Below, piece by piece: positions 14,560 through 37,813 of a DNA stretch of 49,155 nucleotides (within the stretch, counting starts at the first letter, position 1; the number at the start of each line of letters is the position of its first letter). Source of the DNA: Bacillota bacterium (lineage in GTDB: Bacteria > Bacillota > SHA-98 > UBA4971); NCBI GenBank assembly GCA_040752635.1, contig JBFMGS010000008.1, positions 4,700 to 53,854 of the forward strand, in the 5' to 3' direction. The notes below the pieces were generated by a model. The model saw only the letters and a program-made list of their open reading frames with translations, made no database searches and was not told the DNA's origin. Position numbers and translations under genes: made by a program.

Positions 14560-14563
14560 TGCC

Positions 14564-17560: not shown

Positions 17561-17563
17561 CTG

Positions 17564-17842: not shown

Positions 17843-17960
17843 CCCCGCCCCCTAACGTTATCATCAACACCGTCATTCCCGACTGGTCGTGTCACTGCTG
17901 CCGGACTATACCCGCGCTGCCGGAGTATACCTGCTATGCTGCGCTTTATTGAGTTCTGCG

Positions 17961-19700: not shown

Positions 19701-19734
19701 TTCCCCTCCCCCAGCGCAACCGGCTCAGGGCAAG

Positions 19735-20703
19735 CTACCCCAGGCCCTGCACACCCAGAAGCTCTTTAGCCGTCGCCTCGTCGGTAACGAGCACGTTCAT
19801 GAACCGTCCCCGAAGCGCCCCTCGTATCCCGGCGACCTTGTGTGAGCCGCCCGCCACCGCGACGGAGAAATCTTTGCGTGCAAACTCCTGAAGGTCAAGC
19901 CCGATCGTCCTTTGATTCAGGGCCTCATCGCAAATGGATCCGTCCTCCGTGAAGAACCGCGAGCACAGGTCTCCAACCGCACCTCTCGTAACCAGCGCCT
20001 CCATCCCGTCGGGCGAGAAGTAACCGGCCTGGACCAGGATAGACGACTTGTCCGGGTGACCGATCGTGAACACCGCAACGTTCGCACTCTCGCCCATCTC
20101 GAGCACCCTGGATAAATTGCGGTCCTTCACGAGAGCTTCTTTGATTTGCCGGCGCTCGACAATGGCCGGCACGGAAAGGAAGTACGGCGTCGCTCCAAAC
20201 GCCTTTGCAAATAGGAGAGCTATTTCGTTTCCGTGGATTAACGCCTCGCCTTTTCCAGACAGCGTTCCTTCAAGCTGGACTACGCTCACGCCAGCCCGCC
20301 TCATCGGGCGTAGCGCCCGCGCGACCTGGAGCATCGTCGTGCCCCCGGTTACCCCGATCGTGTCGTTATCGCGCACGATCTCCCTGAGCAGCCTCGCAGC
20401 CGCCTGCCCCAGGTGCCATGCCAGAGGCCTGCGGCTTGATCGCGGCACCGGGCAAACCACCGCCCGCTTCAGTCCGAATCTCACCTGAAGCTCCCGCGCG
20501 AGCTCTGACTCTTCCCTAAATGGGTCCGACACGGTTACCTGTACGATACCAATCTCCCTTGCTCTCGTCAGCATCCTTGAAATGCGACTGCGCGACAGCC
20601 CGACTCTCTCCGCAATCTCCTGCTGGCCGAGGCCGTACTCGTAGTACATACGAGCAATTTCGACGAGAACCTCTGCATCTTTGTGTGCCATCTCTGTATC
20701 CAT
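19735..20703 (-). CDS. SorC/DeoR(Bacillus)-family sugar-phosphate-sensing regulator #1
   Basis: HTH ARMYYEYGLGQQEIAERVGLSRSRISRML plus sugar-binding domain (GGTTM, AVGDLCSRFF, RTIG, VAGG). Start ATG 20703 or 20691. Confidence 0.9.
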   Translation of the reverse strand: MDTEMAHKDAEVLVEIARMYYEYGLGQQEIAERVGLSRSRISRMLTRAREIGIVQVTVSDPFREESELARELQVRFGLKRAVVCPVPRSSRRPLAWHLGQAAARLLREIVRDNDTIGVTGGTTMLQVARALRPMRRAGVSVVQLEGTLSGKGEALIHGNEIALLFAKAFGATPYFLSVPAIVERRQIKEALVKDRNLSRVLEMGESANVAVFTIGHPDKSSILVQAGYFSPDGMEALVTRGAVGDLCSRFFTEDGSICDEALNQRTIGLDLQEFARKDFSVAVAGGSHKVAGIRGALRGRFMNVLVTDEATAKELLGVQGLG

Positions 20704-20845: not shown

Positions 20846-20995
20846 CCGCTTCAGTCCGAATCTCACCTGAATCTCCCCCGTGAGCTCTGACTCTTCCCTA
20901 AATGGGTCCGACACGGTTACCTGTACGATACCGGTCTCCCTTGCTCTCGTCAGCAACCTCGAAACGCGACTGCGCGACAGCCCGACTCTCTCCGC
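20846..20995 (-). pseudogene. 150-bp duplicate of the HTH region of regulator #1
   Basis: Aligned by hand to 20464-20613: 142/150 identical, no indels; lacks the gene's start and C-terminal domain. Confidence 0.85.
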
Positions 20996-21030: not shown

Positions 21031-21064
21031 AGCACGTTTGTGCCTGCATAGGCACAAACGTGCT
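21031..21064. promoter_or_regulatory. Tandem palindromic operator (GCAC-N4-GTGC x2) upstream of the BMC operon
   Basis: GCACGTTTGTGC (21032-21043) and GCACAAACGTGC (21052-21063); together they form a perfect 15-bp inverted repeat. Confidence 0.6.
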
Positions 21065-21285
21065 TCCAACAAGTTATTCGCTGCCGGCACAAGAATTCCT
21101 GCAACTCCGGTAAAGACTTCTAGGATTTTCTCTTGCCAAACTCTGGACGTGTTACAAATAGTGGCCTTTTGCGGGCATTGCTCCACACGGCACCGCCAGG
21201 ACACTCAGGATATGTCCCAACACGGCCGTGCAAGAGTTGCAAGGCTTATCAGGAGATCAGGCGTGAATACCGTCCTACTTCGGTC

Positions 21286-22233
21286 TCATGTTAGACGCAT
21301 CATCTCAAGGGCTGCAAGTTCGTCTATGATGAGCGTATTCACATAACCTCCTCTCGCCGCGCCGACTATACCCCTCGCTTTGTGTGCTCCGGCAGCCACG
21401 CCGACAGTATGTTCCTTGTTGCGTAGATCCTCAAGACCGATGCCGATAGTCCGCGCGTCGAGTTCAGGGTCAACGATGTTCCCGTTAATGTCAAAGTACC
21501 TCGAACATATGTCTCCGACTGCCCCACGGGTGACGAGGCTCGCAACCTCCTGTGCCGTGACGTAGCCTGCCTCCACCAGGATAGAACGGGCATCAGGAAA
21601 ACCAACGCTAAAGACAGCTACGTCCGCCCGCTTAGCCAGGTCAATAGTAGACCGTATCCCGGGATCTGCAAGGAACTGCGCGCACAGATCTCTGCTGCGG
21701 GTGACCGCTGGAGCCGGGAGTGAGTACGACTCCGCGTTGTATGCCTGTGCAAACTTCATCAATATGGTGGCAGCGTTCTCGTGGGTGCGGCTCGACCTGG
21801 CATTCCCATTCAACTGCACTACTCTCACCCCGGACAGCCCATTGGGAATCAATCTTCCGGCCACTTCATACATAGTCGTCCCCCAGGAAACAGCTATCAC
21901 GGCCCTGTCGCGGATAATACCGTGAAGATACGAGGCTGCAACCTCGCTGACAGCCCGTTTTGCCTCCTGGTCGTCGTCCTTTGAGTTTGGGACGATTATG
22001 ACTTCCTTGAGTCCGAATATCTGCTTAAGGACCTCAGCCCTCTCTTTACAAGCTTCTTCAGGATCGAACACCTCTATCTTGACAAGGCCTTTTACCCGGG
22101 CTTGCGAGAGGCATCTCGAGACCACCGGCCTTGATACCCCCACCATCCGCGCGATTTCAGCCTGAGTAAGTCCATCTTCGTAATAGAGCCTGGCCACCCT
22201 CGAACAGAGTTCGTCACTGTCCACAATGCTCAT
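21286..22233 (-). CDS. SorC/DeoR(Bacillus)-family regulator #2
   Basis: VARLYYEDGLTQAEIARMVGVSRPVVSR, SWGTTM and AVGDICSRYF motifs. Confidence 0.92.
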   Translation of the reverse strand: MSIVDSDELCSRVARLYYEDGLTQAEIARMVGVSRPVVSRCLSQARVKGLVKIEVFDPEEACKERAEVLKQIFGLKEVIIVPNSKDDDQEAKRAVSEVAASYLHGIIRDRAVIAVSWGTTMYEVAGRLIPNGLSGVRVVQLNGNARSSRTHENAATILMKFAQAYNAESYSLPAPAVTRSRDLCAQFLADPGIRSTIDLAKRADVAVFSVGFPDARSILVEAGYVTAQEVASLVTRGAVGDICSRYFDINGNIVDPELDARTIGIGLEDLRNKEHTVGVAAGAHKARGIVGAARGGYVNTLIIDELAALEMMRLT

Positions 22234-23264
22234 AGCAGGGCCACACCACCCAGCGGCGTCTCAGAATCGGTCCTCGCGTTAACCCGAACCTGGTTCACAC
22301 TGGGCGCCTGGTGTCTTGCCAAATTCATCACGTCTCGGGCGGTGGTCTCGTCCGTTATCAGGACGTCAACATACCCGGCACGAATAGCGCCCAGTATACC
22401 GGCCACTTTCTGTCCACCGCCTGCAACCGTTATTTTGAGGGGAATCGTCGCAAGGTTCGAAAGGGATAGGCCAAGAGTGCGCTTATCAAGGGTAGGGTCG
22501 CAGATCCGCCCGAGGCTGTCAAAGAAACGAGAGCAGATGTCCCCCACCGCACCCCTGATCTGCAGATTCTTCATGTCCTCTGGTGTTAGATAGCCTGCCC
22601 CAACAAGAACGCATGCGGGGTCCACTACACCTACGGTAAAAACAGCAACGTCGGATCCTCTTGCGATCTCCAGGGCCTCTGCAATAGACGGATCCTTGCT
22701 GAACGCCTCGCTGAGAGCCGGGTCTTGAACAATAGCCGGGGCGGGAAACGAAAGCGCCTTAGCTCCCAGCTTGGTGGCAATCATCTGAAGCACCTGCGCC
22801 CCCAGGTACGAGGCTCCTCCTTGGCCAACGCAGCCATTTAGCTGCACCACGCAGACTCCTGGTATTCTAGCAGGTCGGAGCCTTAGGGCTACTTCGAATA
22901 GAGTGGTCCCCCAGGATATGCCTACCTTATGCCCCGGCCGAATCACTTCTGAGAGGTATGACGCGGCCGCTGCACCCAACCGCTCTTTGAGTCTGGCATC
23001 CCCACCACCGTCAATGGCAGGGACGAGGACCAGGTCTTTAAGGCCGAACGCCCGCTGCAGCTCGCTGCCTGCGCCGGAGCCCGCGGTGTTCCCGCTGGCA
23101 AATGATATCTTTACGATACCTCTGCGTTTTGCCTCCGCCAGCATTCGAGACACGGTCGATCTTGATGTCCCTAAAGATACAGCGATTTCCCGTTCAGACA
23201 GATTCTCCTCATAGTACAATCTTGCAGCGCGGACGAGGTCGCGAAGCCGCCCGAGGTCACTCAA
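22230..23264 (-). CDS. SorC/DeoR(Bacillus)-family regulator #3
   Basis: AARLYYEENLSEREIAVSLGTSRSTVSRML, SWGTTL and AVGDICSRFF motifs; stop overlaps the start of #2. Confidence 0.92.
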   Translation of the reverse strand: MSDLGRLRDLVRAARLYYEENLSEREIAVSLGTSRSTVSRMLAEAKRRGIVKISFASGNTAGSGAGSELQRAFGLKDLVLVPAIDGGGDARLKERLGAAAASYLSEVIRPGHKVGISWGTTLFEVALRLRPARIPGVCVVQLNGCVGQGGASYLGAQVLQMIATKLGAKALSFPAPAIVQDPALSEAFSKDPSIAEALEIARGSDVAVFTVGVVDPACVLVGAGYLTPEDMKNLQIRGAVGDICSRFFDSLGRICDPTLDKRTLGLSLSNLATIPLKITVAGGGQKVAGILGAIRAGYVDVLITDETTARDVMNLARHQAPSVNQVRVNARTDSETPLGGVALL

Positions 23265-23321: not shown

Positions 23322-24389
23322 TTAGCTCCGTGATGCAAGCCAGCGCTGTAAGAATACGCCGCCCAGGATGATTATTCCTTTCACGATTCGCTGCGGGAAA
23401 GGATGAACACCGACGAGATTGAGCACATTCGTAATGAGGGTGAGTATTAACACCCCGACTGCCGTGCCCGTCACGCCCCCGCGGCCCCCCGACAGGCTGG
23501 TGCCGCCGATGACTACCGCGGCAATTGCGTCCAATTCGAAGAGCTCCCCTTGCCTGGGTTCACCCTGGTCAATACGGCACGCCATGAGTATCCCCGCAAG
23601 CGCGGCAAACGCGCCGGCGATCACGTACACAAGGATCTTGTGACGGTCGCAGTTGATGCCCGATAACCTCGCAGAGTCTTCGTCCCCTCCCACCGCGTAG
23701 ACCCACCGTCCGAAAACGGTCCTCTTCAGAACAAACGCTGATACAAGAAGGCAGGCGATCCAGATAGCGACAGGGACCGGCAGACGGCCCAAGTTTCCAA
23801 ACCCAAACACCGAAAGGGACTCGCCCAGGCCGAATATGGTCCTCCCTCCGGCCAACATGTAGGCCACGCCTCTGATAGACACCATTGTTGCAAGGGTGGC
23901 AACGAATGCAGGGATCTGAGCCTTTGCGATCAAGAACCCGTTTACCAGGCCGACCACAGCGCCGGACGCAAGTGCCGTTATGACAATAAGCGGATCGGGC
24001 ATCGCCGGCGAAAGAGTGACGACGTAGCCTTTGTAACCACCCCAGTGGAACAGGTAGGCCAGCAAGACCCCGGATACCGCGACAGTAGCACCTACTGAAA
24101 GATCGATGCCTCCGGACAGGATCACGAAAGTCATACCGGTGGCCACAAGCCCGATGTAGCTTGCCTGCCGCAAAAGGTTCGCTATGTTAGTCCACGTCAG
24201 AAACGCCGGTGAGACCTGTGCGCTGACAATAACAAGGAGCAGGAATATCATGTACACACTGTTTCTGCCTAGCGCATCCCGCCAGGCGCCAACCCGTCTC
24301 ACCTTACGCTCAAGATGAAGCCTAGTGGCGACAGGTTGTCCATTTGCTCCCGTCACGCCCATCACGCGACCCTCACCCCCATCGCGCAA
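23322..24389 (-). CDS. Ribose-type (CUT2) ABC permease
   Basis: GGIDLSVG, IPAFVATL, AVGGDEDSARLSGI and ELDAIAAVVIGGTSLSGG motifs. The start is probably near 24363-24366. Confidence 0.92.
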   Translation of the reverse strand: MRDGGEGRVMGVTGANGQPVATRLHLERKVRRVGAWRDALGRNSVYMIFLLLVIVSAQVSPAFLTWTNIANLLRQASYIGLVATGMTFVILSGGIDLSVGATVAVSGVLLAYLFHWGGYKGYVVTLSPAMPDPLIVITALASGAVVGLVNGFLIAKAQIPAFVATLATMVSIRGVAYMLAGGRTIFGLGESLSVFGFGNLGRLPVPVAIWIACLLVSAFVLKRTVFGRWVYAVGGDEDSARLSGINCDRHKILVYVIAGAFAALAGILMACRIDQGEPRQGELFELDAIAAVVIGGTSLSGGRGGVTGTAVGVLILTLITNVLNLVGVHPFPQRIVKGIIILGGVFLQRWLASRS

Positions 24390-25876
24390 GCAAGAACATC
24401 CTCTTGTGTGGTTTCTTTCGGCACGAACTCTCCAGCAATGCTGCCCTTTCGCATAACGATGAGCCTGTCGCTTATCGCCATTATCTCGGAAAGCTCCGAC
24501 GATATCACAAGCAACGCCTTGCCCTGACCTGCTATGGCTCTGATGAGCGCGTGGATCTCCGTTTTAGCACCTACGTCCACGCCGCGCGTCGGCTCATCCA
24601 GGATCAGTACCCTGCACGCCGTTGCAAGCCATTTAGCTAACACTACTTTCTGCTGGTTCCCGCCGCTCAGGTTTTCTACGAGCGTCGAGAGAGAAGCCAC
24701 CTTGATCCTCAATTCATCCACGGACTTCTTTGCTGTCGCGTGGAGAGACCGTGCGTTTACCACTCCGAACTTCGAAAGTTGCTCCCAAATCGTCAGCGTC
24801 GAGTTGTCGGCGACGCTCATGCCAAGCACCAGGCCATGCCTCTTTCTATCTTCGGGAACCAGCCCGATTCCAAGTCTCATTGCATGTCGCGGCGAGGAAG
24901 GTTTCACTTCCTTCCCGTCCAGGATGATTGTCCCCGAATCCGACCTATCCGCTCCGACCAGTGCGTGCGCCAGCTCCGTTCTGCCGGCCCCGACAAGTCC
25001 GAACACGCCTACGATCTCACCTGCTAGTATGTGGAGGCTCACATCAGTCAGGACTCCCCGGCGGGAAAGGTTTCTGACCTCCAGAACAGGTGCCCCGGCG
25101 CTGTGCTCTACTCTACCGTTAGATTCCACCACCTCTCTCCCGGTCATCATGCGGACCAAGTCCGATTGCGTAACATCCGAAACCCTGAACGTTCCGACCA
25201 CCTCCCCGTCTCTAAGGACGGTGACGCGGTCGCCTATCTCGAAGATTTCCTCAAGACGGTGAGAAATGTATATAATTGCCACGCCGTCCCGCTGAAGTCC
25301 TTTCATTATATTGAACAGCTTACCCAGCTCTTCCACTGTCAACACGGCTGACGGCTCATCCAGCACTATCACCTTCGCCCTGAAGGACAGGGCTTTGGCG
25401 ATTGCAATGATCTGTTGCTGCGCAACAGTGAGTTGCTCCACAGGCACAGCCACGTCAACCTCGACACCGAAAGGCTCTATCAGCCTTTCGGCTTCCTGGT
25501 GTTGCCGGCGGGCATTCACGGTTCCAAGAGGAGTCCGGATCTCCCGGCCGAGGAATATGTTCTCCGTGGCTGAAAGGCAGGGATTCAACGCCAGTTCCTG
25601 GTACAGTACTGATATGCCCGCCTTCAGCGCCGCATGGGGATTCGGAAAGATCATCTTTTCCCCATCCAGCAAGATATCGCCTCCGTCCATCCTGTAAGCC
25701 CCGCCGAGGATCTTCATGAGAGTTGACTTGCCTGCGCCGTTCTGTCCCACCAGGCAATGAATCTCGCCCCGTCGCACAGAGAGGGAGACGTCGTGTAGAG
25801 CCCTCACGCCGGGAAACGATTTCGAGACGTGCTCCATGCGCAGTACAAACTCATCTGCCACTATAACCACCACCAC
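24362..25876 (-). CDS. CUT2 ABC ATPase (RbsA/MglA-like, two domains)
   Basis: GQNGAGKST, DEPSA, YISHRLEEI, LSGGNQQK and DEPTRGVDVGAK motifs. Confidence 0.95.
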   Translation of the reverse strand: MVVVIVADEFVLRMEHVSKSFPGVRALHDVSLSVRRGEIHCLVGQNGAGKSTLMKILGGAYRMDGGDILLDGEKMIFPNPHAALKAGISVLYQELALNPCLSATENIFLGREIRTPLGTVNARRQHQEAERLIEPFGVEVDVAVPVEQLTVAQQQIIAIAKALSFRAKVIVLDEPSAVLTVEELGKLFNIMKGLQRDGVAIIYISHRLEEIFEIGDRVTVLRDGEVVGTFRVSDVTQSDLVRMMTGREVVESNGRVEHSAGAPVLEVRNLSRRGVLTDVSLHILAGEIVGVFGLVGAGRTELAHALVGADRSDSGTIILDGKEVKPSSPRHAMRLGIGLVPEDRKRHGLVLGMSVADNSTLTIWEQLSKFGVVNARSLHATAKKSVDELRIKVASLSTLVENLSGGNQQKVVLAKWLATACRVLILDEPTRGVDVGAKTEIHALIRAIAGQGKALLVISSELSEIMAISDRLIVMRKGSIAGEFVPKETTQEDVLACAMGVRVA

Positions 25877-25888
25877 ATAGCGCCATGC

Positions 25889-26938
25889 TTACCGCCTTCG
25901 CGTGGCCCCTTGCATGAGCACCGCCGCGATAATGATCAGGCCTTTGGCAACTTGCTGTGGGTATGGCGGTACTTCCATGAGGTTGAGGATGTTCGAGATA
26001 AGCCCAAGCACCAGCGCGCCTATGACCGTCCCCGCAATGCTGCCCCGCCCGCCGCTCAAAGAGGTACCACCGATGATCGCTGCTGCAATGGCGTCAGCTT
26101 CCATACCGGCACCCTCGCGCGGCTCGGCCGCGCCCATCCGACCGAGCATTAGCACACCCGCAAGAGTTGCCAGCACCCCGCTTATCGTGTATACGATGAT
26201 TCTGACCCGGTCGCTATCTATCCCAGAAAGCCACGAGGCGCGTTCATTGCCTCCAACAGCATATACTTTCTTCCCGAACACGGAGCTCCTCAATACAAAC
26301 ATGCACGCAACTGATACCAGCGCCCAAATCATAACGGGTACCGGCAACACGCCAACCCGACCGGCACCCAACCATTCGACTTCGTGAGTAATACCCGGAA
26401 TCGGAAACCCTGCGGTATAGGTAAAGGCGAGACCTCGAATCGCGACCATTGCGCCAAGCGTGACGACGAACGGAGGCATGCCGGCTTTGGTGACCAGGAC
26501 CCCATTTATAAACCCGAGCAGTGCCCCGACTCCGAGTGTGAGAAGCAGGGTGGGGAGGAAAGGCATGATAGGTGCGAGTTCTCTAGATTGCTCAAAACCG
26601 GCTGTCAACTCAGGCATGAACCTGAAAAAGAAACCATGCTGGAAGGTGGCAAGCAGAACTCCTGCGAAGGCGAAAGTTGCACCGACTGACAGGTCGATCC
26701 CTCCGGTGAGGATCACAAAAGTCATCCCCAGGCTCACAAGGCCCACAAAGCTCGACCTGAGCAGCAGATTCATGATGTTCTCCACGGTGAAGAACCGGGG
26801 CGATATGAGCCCGGAAATGACAACGAGCGCCCCGAATACGATATAAAGCTTGTATGCGGTCCAAAACGCGGCGAGCCGCCCGCCTCGCCAGCCTTTGTAT
26901 TCCAAACCGGAACTCCCGGACACTTCCCTAGACAACAT
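25889..26938 (-). CDS. CUT2 ABC permease
   Basis: GGIDLSVG, MPPFVVTLG, AVGGNERASWLSGI and DAIAAAIIGGTSLSGG motifs. Confidence 0.92.
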   Translation of the reverse strand: MLSREVSGSSGLEYKGWRGGRLAAFWTAYKLYIVFGALVVISGLISPRFFTVENIMNLLLRSSFVGLVSLGMTFVILTGGIDLSVGATFAFAGVLLATFQHGFFFRFMPELTAGFEQSRELAPIMPFLPTLLLTLGVGALLGFINGVLVTKAGMPPFVVTLGAMVAIRGLAFTYTAGFPIPGITHEVEWLGAGRVGVLPVPVMIWALVSVACMFVLRSSVFGKKVYAVGGNERASWLSGIDSDRVRIIVYTISGVLATLAGVLMLGRMGAAEPREGAGMEADAIAAAIIGGTSLSGGRGSIAGTVIGALVLGLISNILNLMEVPPYPQQVAKGLIIIAAVLMQGATRRR

Positions 26939-27009
26939 GATTCCAGCCCCGTTTCCTTAACTGCCGCCTTCTAAGAACAGCCGTCCTCTAAGGTTCGCAC
27001 GCCCCGCCA

Positions 27010-27053
27010 CCCGGGTCCGGGCTCTCTCGTCACCGAGCTCGCCCGGACCCGGG
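27010..27053. promoter_or_regulatory. GC-rich stem-loop just 3' of the solute-binding gene
   Basis: Perfect 13-bp stem CCCGGGTCCGGGC/GCCCGGACCCGGG with no U-tract; position typical of an mRNA-stabilising or partial-termination element in ABC operons. Confidence 0.55.
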
Positions 27054-27114
27054 AATGCAGGCACCGTCTTACCTGTCCCTGCACGGCGGGGTCACGCAAC
27101 TCCCCTGGGCTTTC

Positions 27115-28074
27115 CTAGAAGATACTGTCAGGGTTGTAGTACTTCTCAACATTCTCCTTGGTCACCAGGATGGTACCGGTGATCACCCGCTCCGGGTGGG
27201 CCTTGCCATCGAGGTGATCAACCATCATTTCTACCGCCTTAGTAGCTATCTCATAAGAGTTGTTGATTACCGTTCCGATGAACTGGCCGCCTTTCATTAT
27301 CTCTTCGTATGCCTGCCGCTGGCCGTCAATGCCCACCACGAAGACGTCCTTTCTCCCTGCAGCGCGGAGAGTCTTGAGCGCCCCAAGGCCCATGGCGTCA
27401 TTGTGCGTGTAGACGAGCTTCACGTCCGGGTGGGCGGCGAGGGCTTCCTCCATCCTTGCCATGCCCTCAGCGGTGTTGTAATGTGCAATGTACGGTCCTA
27501 CGATCTTGATACCGGGGTATTTCTTTGAAAGCACGGCGTGCATCCCGCCGCCCCGGCCTTTGCCCGCGGAATCGCCGGGATCTCCCGCGATCTCAACCAC
27601 TTTGCCTTTGCCGTTCAATGTCTTGCCGATGAGTTCGCCGGCGAGCTCCCCGGCTTTCCACTGATCGATTCCCACATATCCCACGTGACCCTCTGCCAAT
27701 TCTCTGTCTGCGCAGATAATGGGAATCTTAGCCGCCAGCGCCTTTTTTACAGCAGAGTCGAGCGCGGTCGGAGTCACAGGGTTCACAATTATCCCATCGA
27801 CTTTCTTTGTGATGAGGTCCTCCATGTCAGCGATCTGTCGCGCTACGATGTTGTCTGCGTTCAACCATATGAGCTTGACGCCAAGACGTTCGGCGGTGTC
27901 AACTGCCCCTTGATAAAGCGCCAGGTAGTAGGGGCAGTTCATTACAACCTGTGAAAACCCGATCGTATATCGATACTGTTTCTGCGCGCCAACTCCCACG
28001 CTGAGCGACACGAGCACGAGCATTACCATAATCCCAGCGAGCACGTGCTTTCCAAAGGACAATCTCCTCAGCAT
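27115..28074 (-). CDS. RbsB-like sugar/polyol-binding protein
   Basis: Signal peptide without lipobox; GIIVNP, IPIICADR, RGGG, HNDAMGLGA and VGIDG motifs. Confidence 0.92.
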   Translation of the reverse strand: MLRRLSFGKHVLAGIMVMLVLVSLSVGVGAQKQYRYTIGFSQVVMNCPYYLALYQGAVDTAERLGVKLIWLNADNIVARQIADMEDLITKKVDGIIVNPVTPTALDSAVKKALAAKIPIICADRELAEGHVGYVGIDQWKAGELAGELIGKTLNGKGKVVEIAGDPGDSAGKGRGGGMHAVLSKKYPGIKIVGPYIAHYNTAEGMARMEEALAAHPDVKLVYTHNDAMGLGALKTLRAAGRKDVFVVGIDGQRQAYEEIMKGGQFIGTVINNSYEIATKAVEMMVDHLDGKAHPERVITGTILVTKENVEKYYNPDSIF

Positions 28075-28250
28075 CTTTGATAACCCCCCCTAAAGAAGAT
28101 CTCTGAAATAGATAGTTGTGCTACAACTGACGCCAGTTCCATCCGCTTGAGTTTCACCGCCATGCGTCATCTGTCCTCCGTCGTCATTTCACCTCCTCGA
28201 GAATGGGACCACCTTGCCCTGGACGCCATGCGAGAAGGCCTCCGTGAGCG

Positions 28251-29813
28251 TCATGCGTCTCGCTCGCCCAGGACCCTGGCGGTCATGGAGTGGAGTATGC
28301 CGCGATTTGCCTCGTAGGTGCGGAGGTACTTTTCGTAGTAGAAGTCATACGTATCCGACGCATCAGGGTTTGGCTCGATCACGTCCTCTACTTCGACCAT
28401 CGAAGATGCCGCCAGGTCAAGTGAGCTATATCTACCCGCGCCGAAAGCTCCGACAATAGCAGAACCGAGCACGGAGGCCTCCCTCACTTTGGTAAGCACG
28501 ATGGGCACTTTGCACACATCTGCATAGATTTGCAGCCACAATTTGCTCTTGGTTGCCCCGCCGCACGCCCTCATCTCTTCAACGGTCACGCCCGCCTGGC
28601 GAAAGGTATCTAAAATCTGTCTGGTCCCAAAAGCACACGCCTCAAAGATCGCGCGGATCAGGTGCCCGCGTCCGTGTTTGAGAGAAAGCCCGGCGACAAC
28701 GCCGCGGGATAGCGGGTCTCTGAGGGGCGTCCTGTTCCCCTGCCAGTGATCGAGGACAACCAGCCCTTCACAGCCAGGCGGCACTTCTGCAGCCTCGCGG
28801 TTCATGATTTCGTACAGATCCCCCGTTGATGCCGTTGGTGCCTGCGAACCTGCTGTACCCAACATGAAGGTGTCACGAAACCAACGCACTATGGAACCGG
28901 AGGAGATCTGTCCGCCCTCAATGAGCCAGAGTTCTTCGAGCATCGCACTCGGGTACGGGCCCCATATCCCGGGATGGTATACCGCCTCCTGTGAATTGGT
29001 CAGATGGACGTTGGACGTTCCGAGGATGACCGAAAGCCTTCCCGGTCGCAAGCCGTCCAGCCCGATCATGCCTATGTGTGCATCTATTCCGCCTTCCGCA
29101 ACGGGAATACCGGACTTGAGACCTAACTCTCCGGCGGCACGCGAAGTCAATTCGCCCGCAAGAGCACCGATAGGGAGGACACTCTTCGGCCACCTGTCGC
29201 GTAGTTCCAGCAGCCCGGCCGCTCCGAGGAACGTTTCGTCAAAGCCGCCGTCAGGCAGGGAGTAATGCCACTTGCAGGTGGCGTTGCACCGCGAGGCAGT
29301 GTACTCCCCTGTAAGCATGAAAATCAGCCAGTCGGTCTGCTCCATCACACGGGCCGCGCTGTCCCATATCCTCGGCTCGTTTTCTTTGACCCACAGCGCC
29401 TTGGCCATCATCCATTCGGGTGACTCCTGTCCGCCCACGTATTTGAGTCGAGGGTGCCTGGTGGCTGTGATCGCCGCGGCCTGACCCGGGTTACGGGAGT
29501 CCATCCACAGGATTGCGCGGCGAAGGGGTCTTCCGTCTTCGTCGGTGAATACAACTGTAGAGGAGGTGCCATCTACCGAGATCCCGGCGATCTGTGCAGG
29601 TTTCACGCCGGAGACCTGCAGGCAGCGTCTCACGGCCGCTAACGCCGCCCTCCACCAATCGTCCGCATCCTGTTCGGCCCACCCGGGCCTATCCTGATAT
29701 ACGGGGTACTCCTCGCTAACGAGAGCTGCAGGGTTACCCTTGTCGTCGAAAAGCCCCGCCCTCAAGCTTTGGGTGCCCGCGTCTATCCCCAGGTAGTAGT
29801 GCTTTCGAGCCAT
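28251..29813 (-). CDS. FGGY-family carbohydrate kinase, ribulokinase-like
   Basis: LGIDAGTQSLR, AILWMDSR, SPEW, TCKWHY, DHWQGNRTP and GGATKS motifs. Confidence 0.9.
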   Translation of the reverse strand: MARKHYYLGIDAGTQSLRAGLFDDKGNPAALVSEEYPVYQDRPGWAEQDADDWWRAALAAVRRCLQVSGVKPAQIAGISVDGTSSTVVFTDEDGRPLRRAILWMDSRNPGQAAAITATRHPRLKYVGGQESPEWMMAKALWVKENEPRIWDSAARVMEQTDWLIFMLTGEYTASRCNATCKWHYSLPDGGFDETFLGAAGLLELRDRWPKSVLPIGALAGELTSRAAGELGLKSGIPVAEGGIDAHIGMIGLDGLRPGRLSVILGTSNVHLTNSQEAVYHPGIWGPYPSAMLEELWLIEGGQISSGSIVRWFRDTFMLGTAGSQAPTASTGDLYEIMNREAAEVPPGCEGLVVLDHWQGNRTPLRDPLSRGVVAGLSLKHGRGHLIRAIFEACAFGTRQILDTFRQAGVTVEEMRACGGATKSKLWLQIYADVCKVPIVLTKVREASVLGSAIVGAFGAGRYSSLDLAASSMVEVEDVIEPNPDASDTYDFYYEKYLRTYEANRGILHSMTARVLGERDA

Positions 29814-30012
29814 AAACGTCCAGCGGCCTCCATAACGACTATCAACGACTTGTTCTCGTCCGGTCCGTCAACGACTGTTCTCATCCAGTCCTAAAGACCT
29901 AGACGACCCGCCTCTACCTGATGTTCCAAAGCGCAGGAGTGCAGGCCCTTGACCCCGGGGCTCAGGAAGCCCGGCGCAAGACAAGCCCTGGCCCCGCTCT
30001 CCTCTCGCAGTG

Positions 30013-31080
30013 CTACGGCTGTTGTGGCAGGAACAACACCTTCCCATGCACCATGTGCCGGTTCCATATCTCGTCAAACGCCTGCGGGACTTGTGAAATA
30101 GGTAATCGATGGGTTATGAACGGTTCAGCCACCAGTTTACCCTGGCCCATGAAGTGGAGGGTCGTCCTCCAATCGTCCTGGTGCGGCACCGTCACATCGC
30201 CGGAGTTCCACGAACCTATCACAGAAATCTCGCGCCGCATCACCCTGTCCACAGCAACCTCTGAAAGATCAAGACCCGCATGGGATATACCGCAGAAGAC
30301 CACCGACCCCAGTTTCGAAGCAATAAGGCAGCCCTGGCGTTGGGTCTGTGGAACTCCCGCGGTTTCGATCACGCGGTTGATCCCCACGCCGCCGGTCATC
30401 TCATCGACAACTTCGATGGGATCCGCTACCCGGGCATTGATACATGCATCGGCTCCCAGACGTCGCGCGATCTCTAGCTTCTCGTCGTAGATGTCTACTG
30501 CCACTACCATGACGGCGCCAGCAATTCTTGCCCACTGAACAGTGAAAAGCCCAATCGGACCCGTTCCTAAAACCGCGACAGTATCCCCAACGGTGACCCC
30601 CGCCTTCCTGATAGAATGAAGGGCGACAGCGGCAGGGTCAGTCGTAGCAGCAGTCTCAAAATCGAGACCCTCGGGAAGCCCGAGAACATTCTCAGCTCGG
30701 GTCTTGACATATTCCGCAAATGCCCCGTCCGTCCTGGAGCCGATATAGTCGTAGTGATCGCAAAGGTTATACTGTCCGCTCTTACAATAAACGCATGAGC
30801 CACATGGGATCAGCGGAATGGCGGTGACGCGCTCCCCGGGTCTTACAGTTTTGACGTCGGGACCTATATCTACAACCTCTCCCGCAAACTCGTGCCCGAT
30901 AGTGATAGGGTACGAATAGGCTCCGGTAGCCATAGCCCGGGACGGATCTGAACCGCATATCCCTGCCGCCGCTACCTTAATGAGCACTTCGTTCTCCCCG
31001 ACTTCCGGGACCGGGACGCGTTCGATACGAATATCACCAGGAGCATACAACCGCGCTGCCAGCATGGTCTTTGGGATCAA
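30013..31080 (-). CDS. Zn-dependent polyol(-phosphate) dehydrogenase (GatD/sorbitol DH-like)
   Basis: GICGSD, GHEFAG, structural-Zn CGSCVYC...C and GTGPIG motifs. Start TTG 31080 with AAGGAGG RBS (ORF track over-extends to 31392). Confidence 0.9.
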   Translation of the reverse strand: MIPKTMLAARLYAPGDIRIERVPVPEVGENEVLIKVAAAGICGSDPSRAMATGAYSYPITIGHEFAGEVVDIGPDVKTVRPGERVTAIPLIPCGSCVYCKSGQYNLCDHYDYIGSRTDGAFAEYVKTRAENVLGLPEGLDFETAATTDPAAVALHSIRKAGVTVGDTVAVLGTGPIGLFTVQWARIAGAVMVVAVDIYDEKLEIARRLGADACINARVADPIEVVDEMTGGVGINRVIETAGVPQTQRQGCLIASKLGSVVFCGISHAGLDLSEVAVDRVMRREISVIGSWNSGDVTVPHQDDWRTTLHFMGQGKLVAEPFITHRLPISQVPQAFDEIWNRHMVHGKVLFLPQQP

Positions 31081-31193
31081 CGTTTCGCCCTCCTTGCTCG
31101 CACGGCGTCTACACGGATGTTCATCACAGGGGCGGCGCACGAGCAATTCGCGGTCACTGTCGGGCCGCGACCAAAAGCCATCCCTTGCGTGTA

Positions 31194-31226
31194 GAACAAA
31201 TGTGCAATACCTATGGACATATGTGC
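31194..31226. promoter_or_regulatory. Tandem palindromic operator next to a TATACT -10
   Basis: GAACAAATGTGC (31194-31205) and GGACATATGTGC (31215-31226), immediately downstream on the minus strand of a TATACT hexamer. Confidence 0.6.
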
Positions 31227-31525
31227 TGAGTATACTATTCTCTGCCGTAGGGGAAAATCCTTCTTCAGTGTCACAAGAATTCTCATGGTAGATCTTGGTG
31301 GCGGACCTACCGATTCTGGGCAGATTGACAGGCGTACTGACGCGGGCCTGGTAGCAGTGGGGTCCTATCTGCGGCTGTCTTGTTCGCTGCACGGCAGCCC
31401 CTGGAAGCCTGACAGGCCAAGGTCGTTGCGGCTTCGCAGTTGCGCGGGTTTCTCATAAGTCTCTTCCGTCCCATCCAGGGCTGTGGAGGTAAGGGTCGGT
31501 GAATCCCGGGGAGAAACAAGAATCC

Positions 31526-32575
31526 TCACATACTGACGATGACTTTCATCCCCCTTCTCTCTGCCACTACGAGAAGGCCCTCCTCAAGCCTATCCAGCGG
31601 CAACACGTGGCTTATGAGGCTTCTGACGTTGATCTGGCCCCTTTCGAGAAGCCTCATCGCAAGGTTGAAATGCCCGTGGTTGAAATCATGGCTGCCCGTG
31701 AGCTCAATCTGCTTGTAGTGAATGACGTTGAGATCCACGTCAAGGCGACCCTCGGGATAAAGACCGGCGAAGATGTTTACGGTCCCACACGGGGCGACGA
31801 CGCCTAGGGCCCAGGCAACCGCTCCGGTTGAACTCGCCGCAACTATAACTTTGTCGGGGCCATTACCTCCTGTCATTTCCCGGACCCGTCTCACCGCTGT
31901 TTCATAGCCTGGGGACTCGCCGGGCTCCAGACAAACTATCCTTTCGATACCGAGTGCACGCGCAACCTCCAGCCTTCCAGCGCTGAGGTCACAGATGGCC
32001 ACCCTCGCACCTCTAACGCGAGCAAGCTGAGCGTGTAGCAGGCCGATGGGGCCTGCGCCAACTACGAGGACATCGTCCCCGACCGAAATCCCGCTTCTCT
32101 CCTGCCCATTTATGCAACACGCAAGCGGCTCTGCAAAGACGGCTTCCTCATACGACATAGAGGGCGGAATAACCCAGAGACTCGTTAGAGGCGCCTTACC
32201 ATATTCCGCGAACCCGCCGACGACGCGCGCACGGTTGTCTCTTACACAGTAATTCGGCAGCCCTCGACGGCAGAATTCGCACTGGTTGCACGAAGCCAGC
32301 CAACATGCTGCCACCCGGGTTCCCGGGCGAATTTGCGACGGCGCCGTTCCTACAACTTCCACTACCTCGCCGACCCACTCATGTCCGGGGAGAAACGGCA
32401 ACTTGGCTTCAGGTATGCGTGCTTGCCCGGTGTATAGCCGAACGTCGCTTGGACAGATCCCGCACGCAGCAACTCGTATGAGAGCCTCCCCGGGGCCCGG
32501 TTTTGGCAACGGCACGCGCTCAACGCGCAACTGGCGCGGACCGTGCAACATTGCAGCCCGCATGTGATCCTTCAT
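31526..32575 (-). CDS. Zn-dependent polyol dehydrogenase (MDR family)
   Basis: CGICPSD, GHEWVG, CNQCEFC...C and GAGPIG motifs. Confidence 0.9.
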   Translation of the reverse strand: MKDHMRAAMLHGPRQLRVERVPLPKPGPGEALIRVAACGICPSDVRLYTGQARIPEAKLPFLPGHEWVGEVVEVVGTAPSQIRPGTRVAACWLASCNQCEFCRRGLPNYCVRDNRARVVGGFAEYGKAPLTSLWVIPPSMSYEEAVFAEPLACCINGQERSGISVGDDVLVVGAGPIGLLHAQLARVRGARVAICDLSAGRLEVARALGIERIVCLEPGESPGYETAVRRVREMTGGNGPDKVIVAASSTGAVAWALGVVAPCGTVNIFAGLYPEGRLDVDLNVIHYKQIELTGSHDFNHGHFNLAMRLLERGQINVRSLISHVLPLDRLEEGLLVVAERRGMKVIVSM

Positions 32576-32865: not shown

Positions 32866-33126
32866 TTGGCGCCCGGTTACCAGGTGGTCAGGGAGATCAT
32901 CAAACAGCGCAAGAGGCTCGGCATGACCCAAGAGGAACTGGCAAGGCGCATGGGGACTAAACAGTCAGTTGTATCTTGCCTGGAATCAGGAAAGTATACC
33001 AGTATTACATTACAGACTCTGGAGCGGATGGCAAAGGTCCTGGGTTGTGCGTTGAAGGTAAACTTGGTGCCGCTGAAAAAAGAGGGCAAAGCCAAGCAAC
33101 ACGGGGACCTTTTGGTTCCTGTATAA
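32866..33126 (+). pseudogene. 5'-truncated XRE (HigA-like antitoxin) relic
   Basis: IIKQRKRLGMTQEELARRMGTKQSVVSCLESG...TLQTLERMAKVLG. The would-be RBS abuts the TTG, and upstream TATAAGGGAGTTG reads YKEL in frame if one G is removed. Confidence 0.6.
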
Positions 33127-33297: not shown

Positions 33298-34239
33298 TTA
33301 CTCGCGCCGTCGCCCGGCCAGAAACTCCTCGACTTCAGGTCGCCTGGGCATGGCCGGTGCTGTACCCACTCTCGTCACAGAAATGGCACCGGCTGCATTG
33401 GCAAACTCAACGGCGTCAAGCAAAGGCCGCCCTTCCGCAAGAGCAACGACCAGTGCGCCGTTAAATGCATCGCCGGCGCCCGTAGTATCCACAGCCTTCA
33501 CCTCGAAGGCAGGTGCGTGATATACGCCGGTGTGGCTTACTACGAGGGCCCCGGTGGCCCCGAGAGTGATCACAACATTGCGGCATCCCCGCGCCAGCAA
33601 ATCTCTAGCCGCCTTTTCGGCGGTTCTGTCATCCACCACAGCCTGGCCGGTGATTGCAGACGCCTCTGTCTCGTTGGGAGTCAGTACGTCGACTTTGGAT
33701 AGTAAATCGTCAGGGACCGGCCTCCCGGGCGCCGGATTCAACACAATGCCCACGTTGTTTGCATGCGCGAATTTGATGGCGTACTCCACAGTATGCATCG
33801 GGATCTCCAGTTGCAGCAACACGTAGTCCGAACCCAGGATCCGATCCCTGGCCTTCTCAACATCGCTCGGCTCGAGCTCGTTGTTGGACCCGGGCGCCAC
33901 CACTATCATGTTTTCGCCCTTCTCCTCGTCAACCATTATCAAGGCGGCGCCGGTACAGACGTTGTCAACTCGCTTGACGAAGTCCACCTGTATACCCTCT
34001 TTAACCAGGTTCTCGTACGCCACATCGCCGAAGTAGTCCCTTCCCAGGGAGACTACCATGCACACTTTGGCGCCCAGCCTTGCGGCAGCGACGGCTTGGT
34101 TGGAGCCCTTCCCGCCGGGGCCCATCCGAAAAGGGCCTCCCATAACAGTCTCTCCTGCTACCGGGAGCCTCGGTGTTCTTGACATGAGGTCCATCATAAA
34201 ACTACCTACAACGGTGATCCTGGGTTCTCTATTCGCCAT
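33298..34239 (-). CDS. rbsK: Ribokinase (PfkB family)
   Basis: VVGSFMMDL, GGKGSNQAVAAARLG, LLQLEIP, NPAP, PNETE and DTTGAGDAF motifs. Start ATG 34239 with GGAGG RBS. Confidence 0.9.
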   Translation of the reverse strand: MANREPRITVVGSFMMDLMSRTPRLPVAGETVMGGPFRMGPGGKGSNQAVAAARLGAKVCMVVSLGRDYFGDVAYENLVKEGIQVDFVKRVDNVCTGAALIMVDEEKGENMIVVAPGSNNELEPSDVEKARDRILGSDYVLLQLEIPMHTVEYAIKFAHANNVGIVLNPAPGRPVPDDLLSKVDVLTPNETEASAITGQAVVDDRTAEKAARDLLARGCRNVVITLGATGALVVSHTGVYHAPAFEVKAVDTTGAGDAFNGALVVALAEGRPLLDAVEFANAAGAISVTRVGTAPAMPRRPEVEEFLAGRRRE

Positions 34240-34318
34240 GGTCCTCCCCCTGCCTCGCCAAAATCGCGTTGCCAGATGTTCCAACGTTGCCGGTGCATCG
34301 TGCACGCCTATCTCCTCA

Positions 34319-35158
34319 TCAGCCCCTCATAGCTCCAAGCGTCAGCCCTCTCACGAGATACCTCTGCAGCAACAAAGCAAGGATTACTACGGGAAGCGAC
34401 GTTAGTACAGATAGAGCGGATATCTCACCCCACATGATCTCGTGTCCACCGACCATACCTGATATGATCACGGGGAGCGTGGTCACTCTCGATCTCGTCA
34501 AGACTAGGGCGAAGAGAAACTCGTTCCAGGAGAATATGAAGCAGAAGAGGCCGGTCACGATGAGAGCGGGTACCGCAAGCGGCAGCGCGATTCTCCAGAA
34601 CACCTGCAGGCGGTTGAAACCATCAACCAGCGCCGCTCCCTCTATGTCGGCAGGAATGTCCTCAAAAAACCCCTTGATGAGCCAGACCGCAAATGGCAGG
34701 TTAAACAGGCAATAGGCAAGCACTAACGCAGGATAGGTGTCGAGCAACCCTGCATACCGCATCAGTATGAATATGGGGATTATGCCGGCTATCGGCGGCG
34801 CCATCCGAATCGAGAGGATCCAGAAGGACAGGTTGTCGCCACCGGTCCTGTACCTGGCGATGCTGTAAGCTGCCAGAGAGCCCAGGACGATCGCCAGCGC
34901 CGCGCTGGATCCCGCCACGACGAGGCTGTCCTTGATACCCTTCGCCCCGCCACGCTCAAGAGCCCTGCTGAAATTATGCCACTCTAGCTGCTTGGGTACA
35001 AACACCGGTGGCGACGTGTAGAACTCCCCGCGCTGCTTAACCGACCCCACGAACATCCAGTACACGGGGAAAAGGTTGAATAAGAGCAGAACTCCTATTG
35101 TGAAGTAAACTAACGCGGCCTGCCACGACTTGCTCGACCGGATCTCCCGCTCTTTCAT
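34319..35158 (-). CDS. CUT1 ABC permease (MalG-like)
   Basis: EAA loop EDIPADIEGAALVDG; FIFSWNEFLFA. Confidence 0.93.
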   Translation of the reverse strand: MKEREIRSSKSWQAALVYFTIGVLLLFNLFPVYWMFVGSVKQRGEFYTSPPVFVPKQLEWHNFSRALERGGAKGIKDSLVVAGSSAALAIVLGSLAAYSIARYRTGGDNLSFWILSIRMAPPIAGIIPIFILMRYAGLLDTYPALVLAYCLFNLPFAVWLIKGFFEDIPADIEGAALVDGFNRLQVFWRIALPLAVPALIVTGLFCFIFSWNEFLFALVLTRSRVTTLPVIISGMVGGHEIMWGEISALSVLTSLPVVILALLLQRYLVRGLTLGAMRG

Positions 35159-35162
35159 AGTC

Positions 35163-36077
35163 TCACGCCCTCCCCACTCTCATCATTTTAACCAGGCGCA
35201 TGCAGATCACGGTCACGATCACGAGCTGAATCACCGCCAGTGCTGTCGCGTACCCCATGCTGAAGTACCTGAAGCCGTTGATATACGTGTAAAGGCTCAC
35301 ACTTTCCGACGCCGATCCAGGGCCTCCTCCCGTGAGCAGGAAGACCAGGTCAAAGATCTTGAAGACGTCCATGACCCGGAACAGCGCCACTATGATTACG
35401 GTAGGTTTCAGGAGGGGAAGCGTCACACGCCGGAACACCTGCCAGGGGGTAGCGCCGTCAACGTTAGCTGCTTCGTAGACACGAGGGGATATCGATTGAA
35501 GCCCTGCGAGCAACACGACGGTAACAAAGGGGGTCCACTGCCACACCTCGGCGGCCAGGATCGAGAAGAGAGCCGTTCGGGTATCCGCAAGCCAGGCAAA
35601 CCCGTTGCCAAGATGAAGAGCACGAATGATGTAGTTCAGCGGGCCGAAGGATTCATGGTATATGACCCGCCACTGAAAGCCGACAACAACCGGAGCAATC
35701 GTGATCGGAATAAGAAACAGCGATGTAACGAGCTTTTTCAGCCTAAATTCTCGGTTCAGCAGAAGCGCCGTCGCAAGACCGAGAACTAGCTGCAGCCCCA
35801 CTCCTCCCACCAGAAGGATAAGAGTGTTCTTCATTGCGTTCCAGAACCGGCCGTCCGCTAAGATATTAGCGTAGTTACCGAACCAAGCGAATTGCGGCGG
35901 CGCCATGGAAACGAGTTCCCACGACGTGAAGCTGGTGATGAAGATGAATAGTAGCGGTCCGATGGCGAGAGCGAGCAGGATACCTACTACAGGTGCAATA
36001 AACAACACGGGTAGCTTCTTGTCGGTCCACAGGCTGAGATCTCGGGCCCTGGCAGGCGCGATACCTCCGGGGTTCAT
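35163..36077 (-). CDS. CUT1 ABC permease (MalF-like)
   Basis: WQWTPF...LAGLQSI...YEAANVDGA motif. Confidence 0.93.
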   Translation of the reverse strand: MNPGGIAPARARDLSLWTDKKLPVLFIAPVVGILLALAIGPLLFIFITSFTSWELVSMAPPQFAWFGNYANILADGRFWNAMKNTLILLVGGVGLQLVLGLATALLLNREFRLKKLVTSLFLIPITIAPVVVGFQWRVIYHESFGPLNYIIRALHLGNGFAWLADTRTALFSILAAEVWQWTPFVTVVLLAGLQSISPRVYEAANVDGATPWQVFRRVTLPLLKPTVIIVALFRVMDVFKIFDLVFLLTGGGPGSASESVSLYTYINGFRYFSMGYATALAVIQLVIVTVICMRLVKMMRVGRA

Positions 36078-36168
36078 TGCTCGGCATCTCCTTTCTGCCG
36101 GTCACTCTGGTGCACTTCGAAGCCATGGGTGGGGCCACCCGGGGACGAGCGGCCCCACCGCTTTGTCG

Positions 36169-37635: not shown

Positions 37636-37813
37636 CCTCCTAAATGAGAATTTGGATCAGCCGTTCCCATTTGAAACAGACACCTGGTACTCGTACCTTC
37701 GTGCTTGCGTCTATTCCTCCCACCTCCTTATCTGGACCGCCTTGCAGTAGAGATCCACTCCACAGGACAGTACTACGGACAATGGCCACTCACATCACCA
37801 CAGGTACCCCTGC

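Follow-up and report, generated by a model that had tools for sequence, protein, structure and literature searches.

The question raised by this locus is whether a set of genes for the uptake, oxidation and phosphorylation of a small carbohydrate, which adjoins the operon of a bacterial microcompartment (BMC), supplies that organelle with carbon or only lies beside it. The locus belongs to a stretch of 49,155 nucleotides from a Bacillota bacterium (assembly GCA_040752635.1, contig JBFMGS010000008.1, positions 4,700 to 53,854), which is called the window throughout and within which all positions are counted; the catabolic module occupies positions 23322-32575, and the BMC is of the sugar phosphate utilising (SPU) type. 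A first-pass annotation, which was made from the letters of the DNA, had proposed that the module oxidises and phosphorylates a pentitol or a deoxy-polyol for the BMC, that it extends the range of SPU substrates and that it gives the RpiB protein of the organelle a role. In the present comparative analysis, the proposed tie between the module and the BMC was supported by their synteny, by a dehydrogenase gene (DH2) that was never found without the BMC, by an operator that is shared by both and by the recurrence of non-orthologous gene sets of the same kind, while the chemistry that had been proposed for the module fared less well. Genomes and loci that were used for comparison are cited by their handles (G and L numbers, respectively).

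A catabolic module tied to a microcompartment

Pfam and NCBIfam recovered all seven genes of the module where the first-pass annotation had placed them, on the minus strand, which between 10.3 kb and 42 kb of the window carries all the large genes. Both databases also bore out its description of the module as two zinc dehydrogenases, a ribulokinase-like FGGY kinase and a CUT2 importer with two permeases, which adjoins the BMC in the same orientation; three SorC regulators lie between the two. In the order of transcription, the features are as follows.

31526-32575, minus strand: DH1, NAD-type zinc dehydrogenase of the medium-chain (MDR) family, threonine/sorbitol-dehydrogenase-like (Pfam ADH_N and ADH_zinc_N; PDB comparison)
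30013-31080, minus strand: DH2, NAD-type zinc MDR dehydrogenase, closest to GatD (Pfam ADH_N and ADH_zinc_N; NCBIfam; PDB 4a2c)
28251-29813, minus strand: FGGY carbohydrate kinase, pentulose/ribulokinase-like (Pfam FGGY_N and FGGY_C; NCBIfam; PDB 3gg4/3l0q)
27115-28074, minus strand: CUT2 substrate-binding protein, like the ribose-binding protein, with an altered pocket (Pfam Peripla_BP_4; RbsB model)
25889-26938, minus strand: CUT2 permease A (Pfam BPD_transp_2; NCBIfam)
24362-25876, minus strand: CUT2 ATPase with two fused ABC domains (Pfam; NCBIfam)
23322-24389, minus strand: CUT2 permease B (Pfam BPD_transp_2; NCBIfam)
22230-23264, minus strand: SorC1, regulator of the SorC/DeoR(Bs) type that travels with the module (Pfam, NCBIfam)
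21286-22233, minus strand: SorC2, regulator of the SorC/DeoR(Bs) type that travels with the module, overlapping SorC1 by 4 nt (Pfam, NCBIfam)
19735-20703, minus strand: SorC3, regulator constantly found with the BMC (NCBIfam, 339.5 bits against a cut-off of 420)
10289-19700, minus strand: SPU4-like BMC operon (Pfam, open reading frames, DeoC = TIGR00126)

The same tandem pair of GCACAnnTGTGC palindromes was found ahead of both DH2 and the SorC3-BMC operon, within two promoter/operator regions.

31194-31263, minus strand: DH2 promoter/operator region, with a GAAGGATTTT box at 31254-31263 and GAGAATAGTATACT at 31229-31242
31215-31226 and 31194-31205, minus strand: DH2 operator palindromes GCACATATGTCC and GCACATTTGTTC, respectively, with a 21-bp spacing
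21032-21102, minus strand: BMC-operon promoter/operator region, with a GCAGGAATTC box at 21093-21102 and GCGAATAACT at 21072-21081
21052-21063 and 21032-21043, minus strand: BMC operator palindromes GCACGTTTGTGC and GCACAAACGTGC, respectively, with a 20-bp spacing

The upstream regions of SorC3 from nine genomes and of DH2 from four genomes were aligned, and a common layout was present at all of these promoters (9/9 and 4/4, respectively): a GGAGGATTT-like box is followed, approximately 10-12 nt on, by a GCGAATA-like box and, approximately 10 nt beyond it, by two 12-bp GCACAnnTGTGC palindromes. The spacing of the palindromes was fixed, at 20 bp at every BMC promoter and at 21 bp at every DH2 promoter. 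Allowing at most one mismatch, five GCACAnnTGTGC sites occur in the window, four of which form the DH2 and SorC3 pairs. A weight matrix that was built from all 26 sites was additionally scanned over the whole 2.58 Mb assembly. The DH2 pair scored highest (34.2 bits) and the SorC3 pair second (33.3 bits), with the next best pair reaching 22.4 bits, and shuffled genomes yielded 0-2 pairs at 18 bits or more; the scan is slightly circular because four of the 26 training sites came from the scanned genome. These two are the sole strong pairs in the genome, and, among the uptake modules that the genome of the window contains, the dehydrogenase/FGGY/CUT2 module is the only one that shares the operator of the BMC. 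Co-regulation of the two operons is therefore considered likely, and the simplest reading of the operators would be a two-operon regulon under SorC-type repression. Simple promoter and terminator scans returned nothing that exceeded the shuffled expectation. A 13-mer, GAATTCTTGTGMC, which is common to both promoters and had been spotted by eye, was not above chance when two mismatches were allowed, and the analysis of the conserved palindromes was therefore used in its place.

All three SorC proteins consist of an N-terminal helix-turn-helix (HTH) domain and a PF04198 sugar-binding domain, as was seen both with Pfam and in the alignment. The Bacillus DeoR model was the best NCBIfam match of each of them; among them, SorC3 most resembled B. 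subtilis DeoR, and the other two reached 309.8 and 267.5 bits against the same cut-off. In the genomes without the module, SorC3 is the sole SorC regulator at the BMC locus. Upstream of SorC3, the window has a 150-bp direct repeat with 94.7% identity (20846-20995 compared with 20464-20613). The copy at 20846-20995 is a start-less duplicate of the HTH-coding part of SorC3 that is located between the BMC operator and the real start of SorC3, and it places the operator approximately 350 nt upstream of SorC3 in the window compared with 70-260 nt in the relatives.

The synteny that had been suggested as a check of the module was found with the same BMC in other genomes. The full array from DH1 to the aldehyde dehydrogenase (AldDH), together with the BMC, is present in L001, a Firmicutes metagenome-assembled genome (MAG) that has the same sequence as G003, at a protein identity of 66-92% and with an upstream flank that differs from that of the window; in L028, the array is the same as far as the contig end. 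Within the family, the BMC was present in G000, G001, G003, G005, G007, G009, G011 and G015, and G016 contained a BMC fragment. The orthologues of the kinase were restricted to G000, G003 and G005, and those with an identity of at least 76% that are located on long contigs adjoin the BMC. The orthologues of DH2 (identity of at least 79%) were restricted to G000, G001, G003, G005 and G009, all of which bear the BMC, and they are located beside it wherever the contig permits a check (in G005, DH2 and the BMC are on separate contigs). No DH2 orthologue was found in the BMC-negative relatives. The dependence is one-way, i.e., the module needs the BMC but not the reverse, and the module is an optional add-on because BMC-bearing relatives can lack DH2.

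Variants of the module were found in the same family. G001 and G009 retain DH2, SorC1 and SorC2, but the interval between DH2 and SorC1 is filled differently, with other CUT2 systems, more MDR dehydrogenases and either a short-chain dehydrogenase (SDR) in G001 or a sugar epimerase-type TIM barrel in G009. The kinase of both is a true member of the GlpK family (approximately 730 bits, cut-off 498), and DH2 is the one catabolic gene that is retained in the three family variants (window, G001 and G009). A second architecture was located in L031 via an AldDH with 67% identity. There, a single tightly spaced operon (5307-20043) starts with an SDR, an MDR and a 2-hydroxyacid dehydrogenase, three BMC-P, DeoC, AldDH, two BMC-H and PduL and continues with a small protein, an FGGY kinase, an SDR and a CUT2 system; it contains neither RpiB nor PduS. 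The same layout was found at similar positions in three MAGs (L033, L036 and L057), which came from an AldDH-anchored scan of species genomes; L033 and L036 have a second copy of DeoC upstream. The pairwise identity between the kinases of the window, of the GlpK-like variants and of L031 is 22-26%, and, therefore, DeoC-type BMCs have acquired sets of a kinase, dehydrogenases and an importer on at least three occasions. Moreover, an FGGY kinase and an MDR dehydrogenase were present within 10 kb in four of the four long DeoC-BMC loci and in none of the 32 long BMC loci that lack DeoC (Fisher p = 1.7e-5, uncorrected for phylogeny).

Enzymes, importer and possible substrate

DH1 and DH2 retain the catalytic Cys, the GHE zinc ligands and the structural Cys4 cluster, and the Asp that follows the Rossmann motif in both of them indicates the use of NAD. 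The best NCBIfam matches of DH1 were below the cut-offs, and its orthologue, with 67% identity, occupies the same position in G003/L001. Because DH1 lies upstream of the operator-bearing promoter of DH2, it may be transcribed apart from the DH2 operon. The 459-aa open reading frame of DH2 that reaches 31392 is too long; its conserved start is a TTG at 31080, which has an AAGGAGG ribosome-binding site ahead of it and with which the orthologues agree. DH2 aligned end to end with E. coli GatD (PDB 4a2c, 233 bits), including both zinc sites. It differs from GatD in that the window has no phosphotransferase system and in that it scored 259 bits against the galactitol-1-phosphate 5-dehydrogenase model NF007642, whose cut-off is 550, and hence is not a member of that family.

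The FGGY kinase reached 342 bits with the ribulokinase model PRK04123 (cut-off 428) and 339 bits with TIGR01315 (cut-off 408.7), and the solved structure nearest to it is that of an FGGY kinase from Yersinia. Because both scores are below the cut-offs, its putative class was limited to an FGGY kinase that is pentulose-kinase-like. Its homologues with an identity of approximately 50-56% are stand-alone genes or belong to a GH172/FucI-like cluster of the D-arabinose type, none of them near a BMC, and this context backs no more than the same label. In the 199-nt gap ahead of the kinase gene, there are two direct repeats, GAGAACA(A)GTCGTTGA, at 29842-29882 on the minus strand; they are not conserved because the matching gap is just 41 nt in G003.

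The importer has the composition of a CUT2 system, i.e., a Peripla_BP_4 binding protein, BPD_transp_2 permeases and a single double-ABC ATPase of approximately 500 aa; judging from the L001 orthologue, the true start of permease B is probably located about 30 nt further in. The binding protein scored 170 bits against the RbsB model (cut-off 337), and its best PDB match was 2ioy. When its pocket was compared with the ligand contacts of E. coli RbsB, five of the ten residues differed, and the Asp/Arg/Arg/Asn/Asp core was retained. An encapsulation-type extension was found on none of DH1, DH2 and the FGGY kinase.

The BMC operon encodes, in order, AldDH, BMC-H, PduL, BMC-T, a 157-aa protein, BMC-H, BMC-P, a PduS-like protein, RpiB, two BMC-P and a DeoC fusion. 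Pfam detected BMC domains (PF00936) at 17564-17842, 15983-16531 and 15183-15485 and EutN domains (PF03319) at 14564-14857 and 12364-12678, and the third BMC-P, inside 12021-12419, was recognised from its open reading frame and its orthologues. The acylating AldDH is located at 17961-19700 and RpiB (PF02502), which exceeded the cut-offs of the RpiB models, at 12725-13183. The aldolase domain of the DeoC fusion (PF01791) scored 299 bits with TIGR00126 against a cut-off of 117, which makes it a clear equivalog of deoxyribose-phosphate aldolase (DERA). BMC-H, the BMC-P triplet, the DeoC-type aldolase, RpiB and the acylating AldDH are the components by which an SPU-type BMC is recognised. The locus shares with the published SPU4 loci (PMC4207490, PMC8217296, PMC11585597) the Firmicutes host, AldDH, a PduL-type phosphotransacylase, DeoC, RpiB, the BMC-P triplet, two BMC-H, a PduS-associated BMC-T and a flavoprotein-like module, which is fused to DeoC in the window. 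It differs from them in that the module shares the BMC operator and in that no match for triosephosphate isomerase (PF00121) was found among the open reading frames that were scanned at 10289-19700, and the subtype was called SPU4-like because of the latter.

A CUT2 importer, NAD dehydrogenases and an FGGY kinase are the standard logic by which a polyol or a rare aldose is converted into a ketose phosphate. In the explanation that we prefer, the module would be a front end for the catabolism of a small carbohydrate that the cell takes up, which could be a sugar of five-carbon size, a rare sugar or a sugar alcohol. The compound would be imported by the CUT2 ABC system and converted into a sugar phosphate in the cytosol by one or two of the NAD-dependent zinc dehydrogenases and the pentulose-type FGGY kinase. 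Oxidation might precede phosphorylation, or phosphorylation might be followed by the oxidation of a polyol phosphate, an order that is possible because DH2 is GatD-like. The predicted regulon would consist of two operons, DH2-kinase-ABC-SorC1-SorC2 and SorC3-AldDH-shell-RpiB-DeoC, and a SorC/DeoR-type repressor, bound to the tandem GCACAnnTGTGC sites just downstream of the promoter-like box, would prevent transcription for as long as it carries no sugar phosphate. Both the repression by SorC and the direction of the flux are predictions. The module would be optional and exchangeable and would connect one more substrate with the DERA/AldDH/PduL organelle, which would also be fed with deoxyribose-5-phosphate from nucleosides. 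We estimate the probability of this explanation as a whole at about 0.5; that the module delivers carbon into the BMC, with its product presumably entering the shell, is an even prospect.

The specific substrate of the first-pass annotation was not supported by the analysis. Its scheme, in which a pentitol is converted via pentulose into pentulose-5-phosphate as the feed of the BMC, relied on similarity at the family level with scores below the cut-offs, and it yields a product that DERA could not use. To our knowledge, pentulose-5-phosphate is not a substrate of DERA, and we know of no route that leads from a pentitol or pentulose-5-phosphate to 2-deoxyribose-5-phosphate; a plain pentitol is therefore unlikely to be the whole story, and as the substrate it is regarded as improbable. 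Neither 'polyol' nor 'pentitol' is an established label for the module, whose binding protein appears to be of the aldose type. Of the extension of the SPU substrate range, the tie to the BMC was supported and the pentitol scheme was not. The claim that the module gives RpiB a role was weakened, because the RpiB of the window has an Asp at the position of the usual catalytic Cys (GIIVDGAGVG), because the second architecture has no RpiB and because SPU RpiB was reported to be inactive on ribose-5-phosphate (PMC11585597), a finding with which this Asp agrees. The same study, the only biochemical one on SPU organelles, found that SPU DERA is active in cleavage, called the role of RpiB enigmatic and noted that other sugar phosphates may be processed (PMC11585597); the physiological substrate of the organelles is only inferred. 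A phosphorylated polyol might be an intermediate that the family variants have in common, an attractive candidate because DH2, which resembles GatD, persists in the three variants and directly follows the operator.

Alternative explanations and other feeders

The alternative that survives best, which we nevertheless consider unlikely, is that the module and the BMC are neighbours only. The module would then be a stand-alone operon for a pentitol or a rare pentose that leads to ribulose-5-phosphate or xylulose-5-phosphate and on to the pentose-phosphate pathway, the BMC would be fed with deoxyribose-5-phosphate from nucleosides (Pdp, DeoB) and possibly by a ribokinase/CUT1 operon, and the shared operator would be a by-product of the duplication of SorC genes. 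Several observations favour it and, with others that concern the substrate, weigh against a front end of the BMC. Pentulose-5-phosphate requires no BMC. Pyrimidine-nucleoside phosphorylase (Pdp) was present in all seven family genomes and phosphopentomutase (DeoB) in six of them, the one in which it was not found being G000, which is 87% complete. The canonical route from nucleosides to deoxyribose-5-phosphate is therefore available, and, since this feed exists, the module would extend and not replace it. The BMC occurs without the module in G007, G011, G015 and the locus L029, with SorC3 alone in G007, G011 and L029. Similarly, a sugar module is absent from an SPU locus of Armatimonadetes, so the link between module and BMC is not universal; another RpiB match that was checked in other phyla was not a BMC locus. 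The evidence from synteny comes mostly from one bacterial family and one other clade. The three SorC proteins are paralogous and have similar recognition helices, and the 150-bp duplicate of the SorC3 HTH reflects recent duplication activity at this spot; the sharing of the operator could stem from the duplication of the three SorC genes together with their sites. Furthermore, every substrate-level assignment of an enzyme is below the curated NCBIfam cut-off, and the 27115-28074 protein is closer to aldose (ribose) binders than to its solved polyol-bound relatives. The binding proteins of the various modules have ribose-, allose- and arabinose-binding proteins among their relatives; in the variant modules, they are similar to allose- and arabinose-binding proteins or to nothing that has been solved, and they show no common ligand class.

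A further point of this kind is the operon that adjoins the module on its other side.

33298-41969, minus strand: LacI, cupin, two ATPases, CUT1 binding protein, two permeases and PfkB ribokinase (Pfam)

The ribokinase reached 365 bits with TIGR02152 (cut-off 300), and it could be a deoxyribokinase. In L114, a Clostridia MAG, the LacI-CUT1-ribokinase operon is complete and lies upstream of an SPU4 BMC with a reordered gene set, from which it is separated by 87 nt. In G009, the stretch that was covered stops after the first four genes of the operon (LacI, cupin and the two ATPases), which directly follow DeoC on its downstream side. The corresponding stretches are 1143-9552 in L114 and 8655-12399 in L023. 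The operon is an equally recurrent neighbour of the BMC and a rival or a parallel feeder. The cupin of the operon in the window is ureidoglycolate-lyase-like. The 722-nt gap between the ribokinase and DH1 contains a gene on the opposite strand (32866-33126, plus strand), which encodes an 86-aa HTH protein of the XRE type. A HutP-family gene is located on the opposite strand just upstream of the module or the BMC in L001 (6283-6726), L018 (2621-3196) and L029 (3985-4356), and none was found at the corresponding position in the window. In G007 (L021, 8313-12900), the BMC is followed by IclR, an amidohydrolase, a binding protein of the Bmp/PnrA type (nucleoside-type) and an ABC ATPase, i.e., a PnrA-type ABC set, with no dehydrogenase/kinase module. 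Several interchangeable uptake modules thus appear to converge on the BMC, which would act as a hub.

What speaks against simple neighbourhood is that the orthologues of DH2 never occur without the BMC and that the DH2 promoters of four genomes have retained the operator pair, with a fixed spacing of its own. Moreover, three non-orthologous sets joined DeoC-type BMCs, one of them within the BMC operon itself, and none joined the 32 other BMC loci. With regard to what reaches the organelle, the BMC-fused DeoC is the sole deoC in six of the seven family genomes (G000, G001, G003, G005, G007, G009 and G011), and all cleavage of deoxyribose-5-phosphate in those six should therefore occur in the organelle.

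A second alternative, which we regard as rather doubtful, is that the module and the BMC are coupled by redox balance. Because sugar alcohols are more reduced than sugars, the oxidation of a sugar alcohol would yield a surplus of NADH, and the co-regulated BMC would handle acetaldehyde and acetyl-CoA safely, with AldDH working reductively and DERA condensing acetaldehyde with glyceraldehyde-3-phosphate, or with the PduS-like flavoprotein exporting electrons; the common denominator of the modules would then be the redox burden and not a shared intermediate. This would suit the DeoC-BMC modules, which differ in their kinase, transporter and dehydrogenases, yet are all rich in NAD dehydrogenases, as well as the BMC locus, in which Pfam found no iron-type alcohol dehydrogenase and which has a PduS-like protein and BMC-T. 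A reductive, condensing model has also been published for Atribacteria (Nobu et al. 2016, quoted here through PMC6281690). However, condensation would sink just one NADH per acetyl-CoA and leave its product, deoxyribose-5-phosphate, with no obvious fate, the second architecture (L031 type) has no PduS, SPU DERA is active in the cleavage direction (PMC11585597) and SorC3 is the closest of the regulators to the Bacillus DeoR that responds to deoxyribose-5-phosphate. Finally, an lsr-like system for autoinducer-2 (AI-2), in which the importer, the kinase, SorC and the DeoC/LacD-family enzyme would correspond to LsrACDB, LsrK, LsrR and LsrF, was rejected as very improbable on the Lsr family scores and on DeoC: all four protein families have counterparts in the lsr operon, and matches to the Lsr models were obtained, but all of these are far below the cut-offs (LsrK 218 against 528, LsrR 142-146 against 486, LsrA 394 against 586, LsrC/LsrD 105-139 against 388-500) and also below the sugar models, DeoC is a DERA equivalog and not LsrF, no LsrG-like gene was seen and the lsr pathway offers no role for the two dehydrogenases.

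Relation to known systems and biological meaning

Two known kinds of systems are close to the regulatory and catabolic sides of a BMC front end. B. subtilis DeoR is a SorC-family repressor of the dra-nupC-pdp operon that is released by deoxyribose-5-phosphate. The SorC proteins of the window share with it the HTH and PF04198 domains and an operon that includes a deoxyribose-phosphate aldolase. They differ in that there are three paralogues with scores below the cut-off and in that the nucleoside transporter and phosphorylase of dra-nupC-pdp are replaced by a BMC and a dehydrogenase/kinase/ABC operon. On the catabolic side, operons for polyols and rare sugars, i.e., for ribitol and D-arabitol and, from binding-protein screens, for erythritol, threitol and D-apiose, combine CUT2 importers, NAD dehydrogenases and FGGY kinases to form a ketose phosphate. 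These routes lead into the pentose-phosphate pathway or to triose phosphates, and they are not known to be linked to a BMC. The module follows the same logic, but no enzyme of the window reaches their equivalog cut-offs.

A full-text search of the accessible literature returned no paper that joins FGGY kinases or polyols with BMCs. In the accessible parts of the SPU texts and the supplementary type descriptions (PMC4207490, PMC8217296, PMC11585597), there is no FGGY kinase, MDR or SDR dehydrogenase, ABC importer or shared operator, and a search of the supplement for FGGY, PF00370 and PF08240 found nothing. The BMC itself is of a known kind (SPU, SPU4-like), and the FGGY/dehydrogenase/CUT2 module that shares its operator appears to be the new element.

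A broader reading, which at present is unlikely, is that Firmicute SPU4 organelles are hubs for imported rare sugars or (deoxy)polyols and not chiefly recyclers of DNA sugars. In this reading, exchangeable dehydrogenase/FGGY/CUT2 cassettes would turn different substrates into one phosphorylated intermediate, for which the conserved, GatD-like DH2 may use a polyol phosphate; the encapsulated DERA, with RpiB as its partner, would then cleave the intermediate to an aldehyde. If this reading were true, the modules would name the natural substrates of the organelles, and it would imply either a new substrate of DERA or a new route to deoxyribose-5-phosphate. Few bacterial microcompartments are as widespread as SPU organelles, and the operator that is shared and unique in the genome, together with the repeated recruitment of such modules, makes the question of their substrate testable with four binding proteins, a few enzymes and one operator. 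Additionally, the operons of the module and the BMC define a small, clean regulon for studying how a BMC is switched on.

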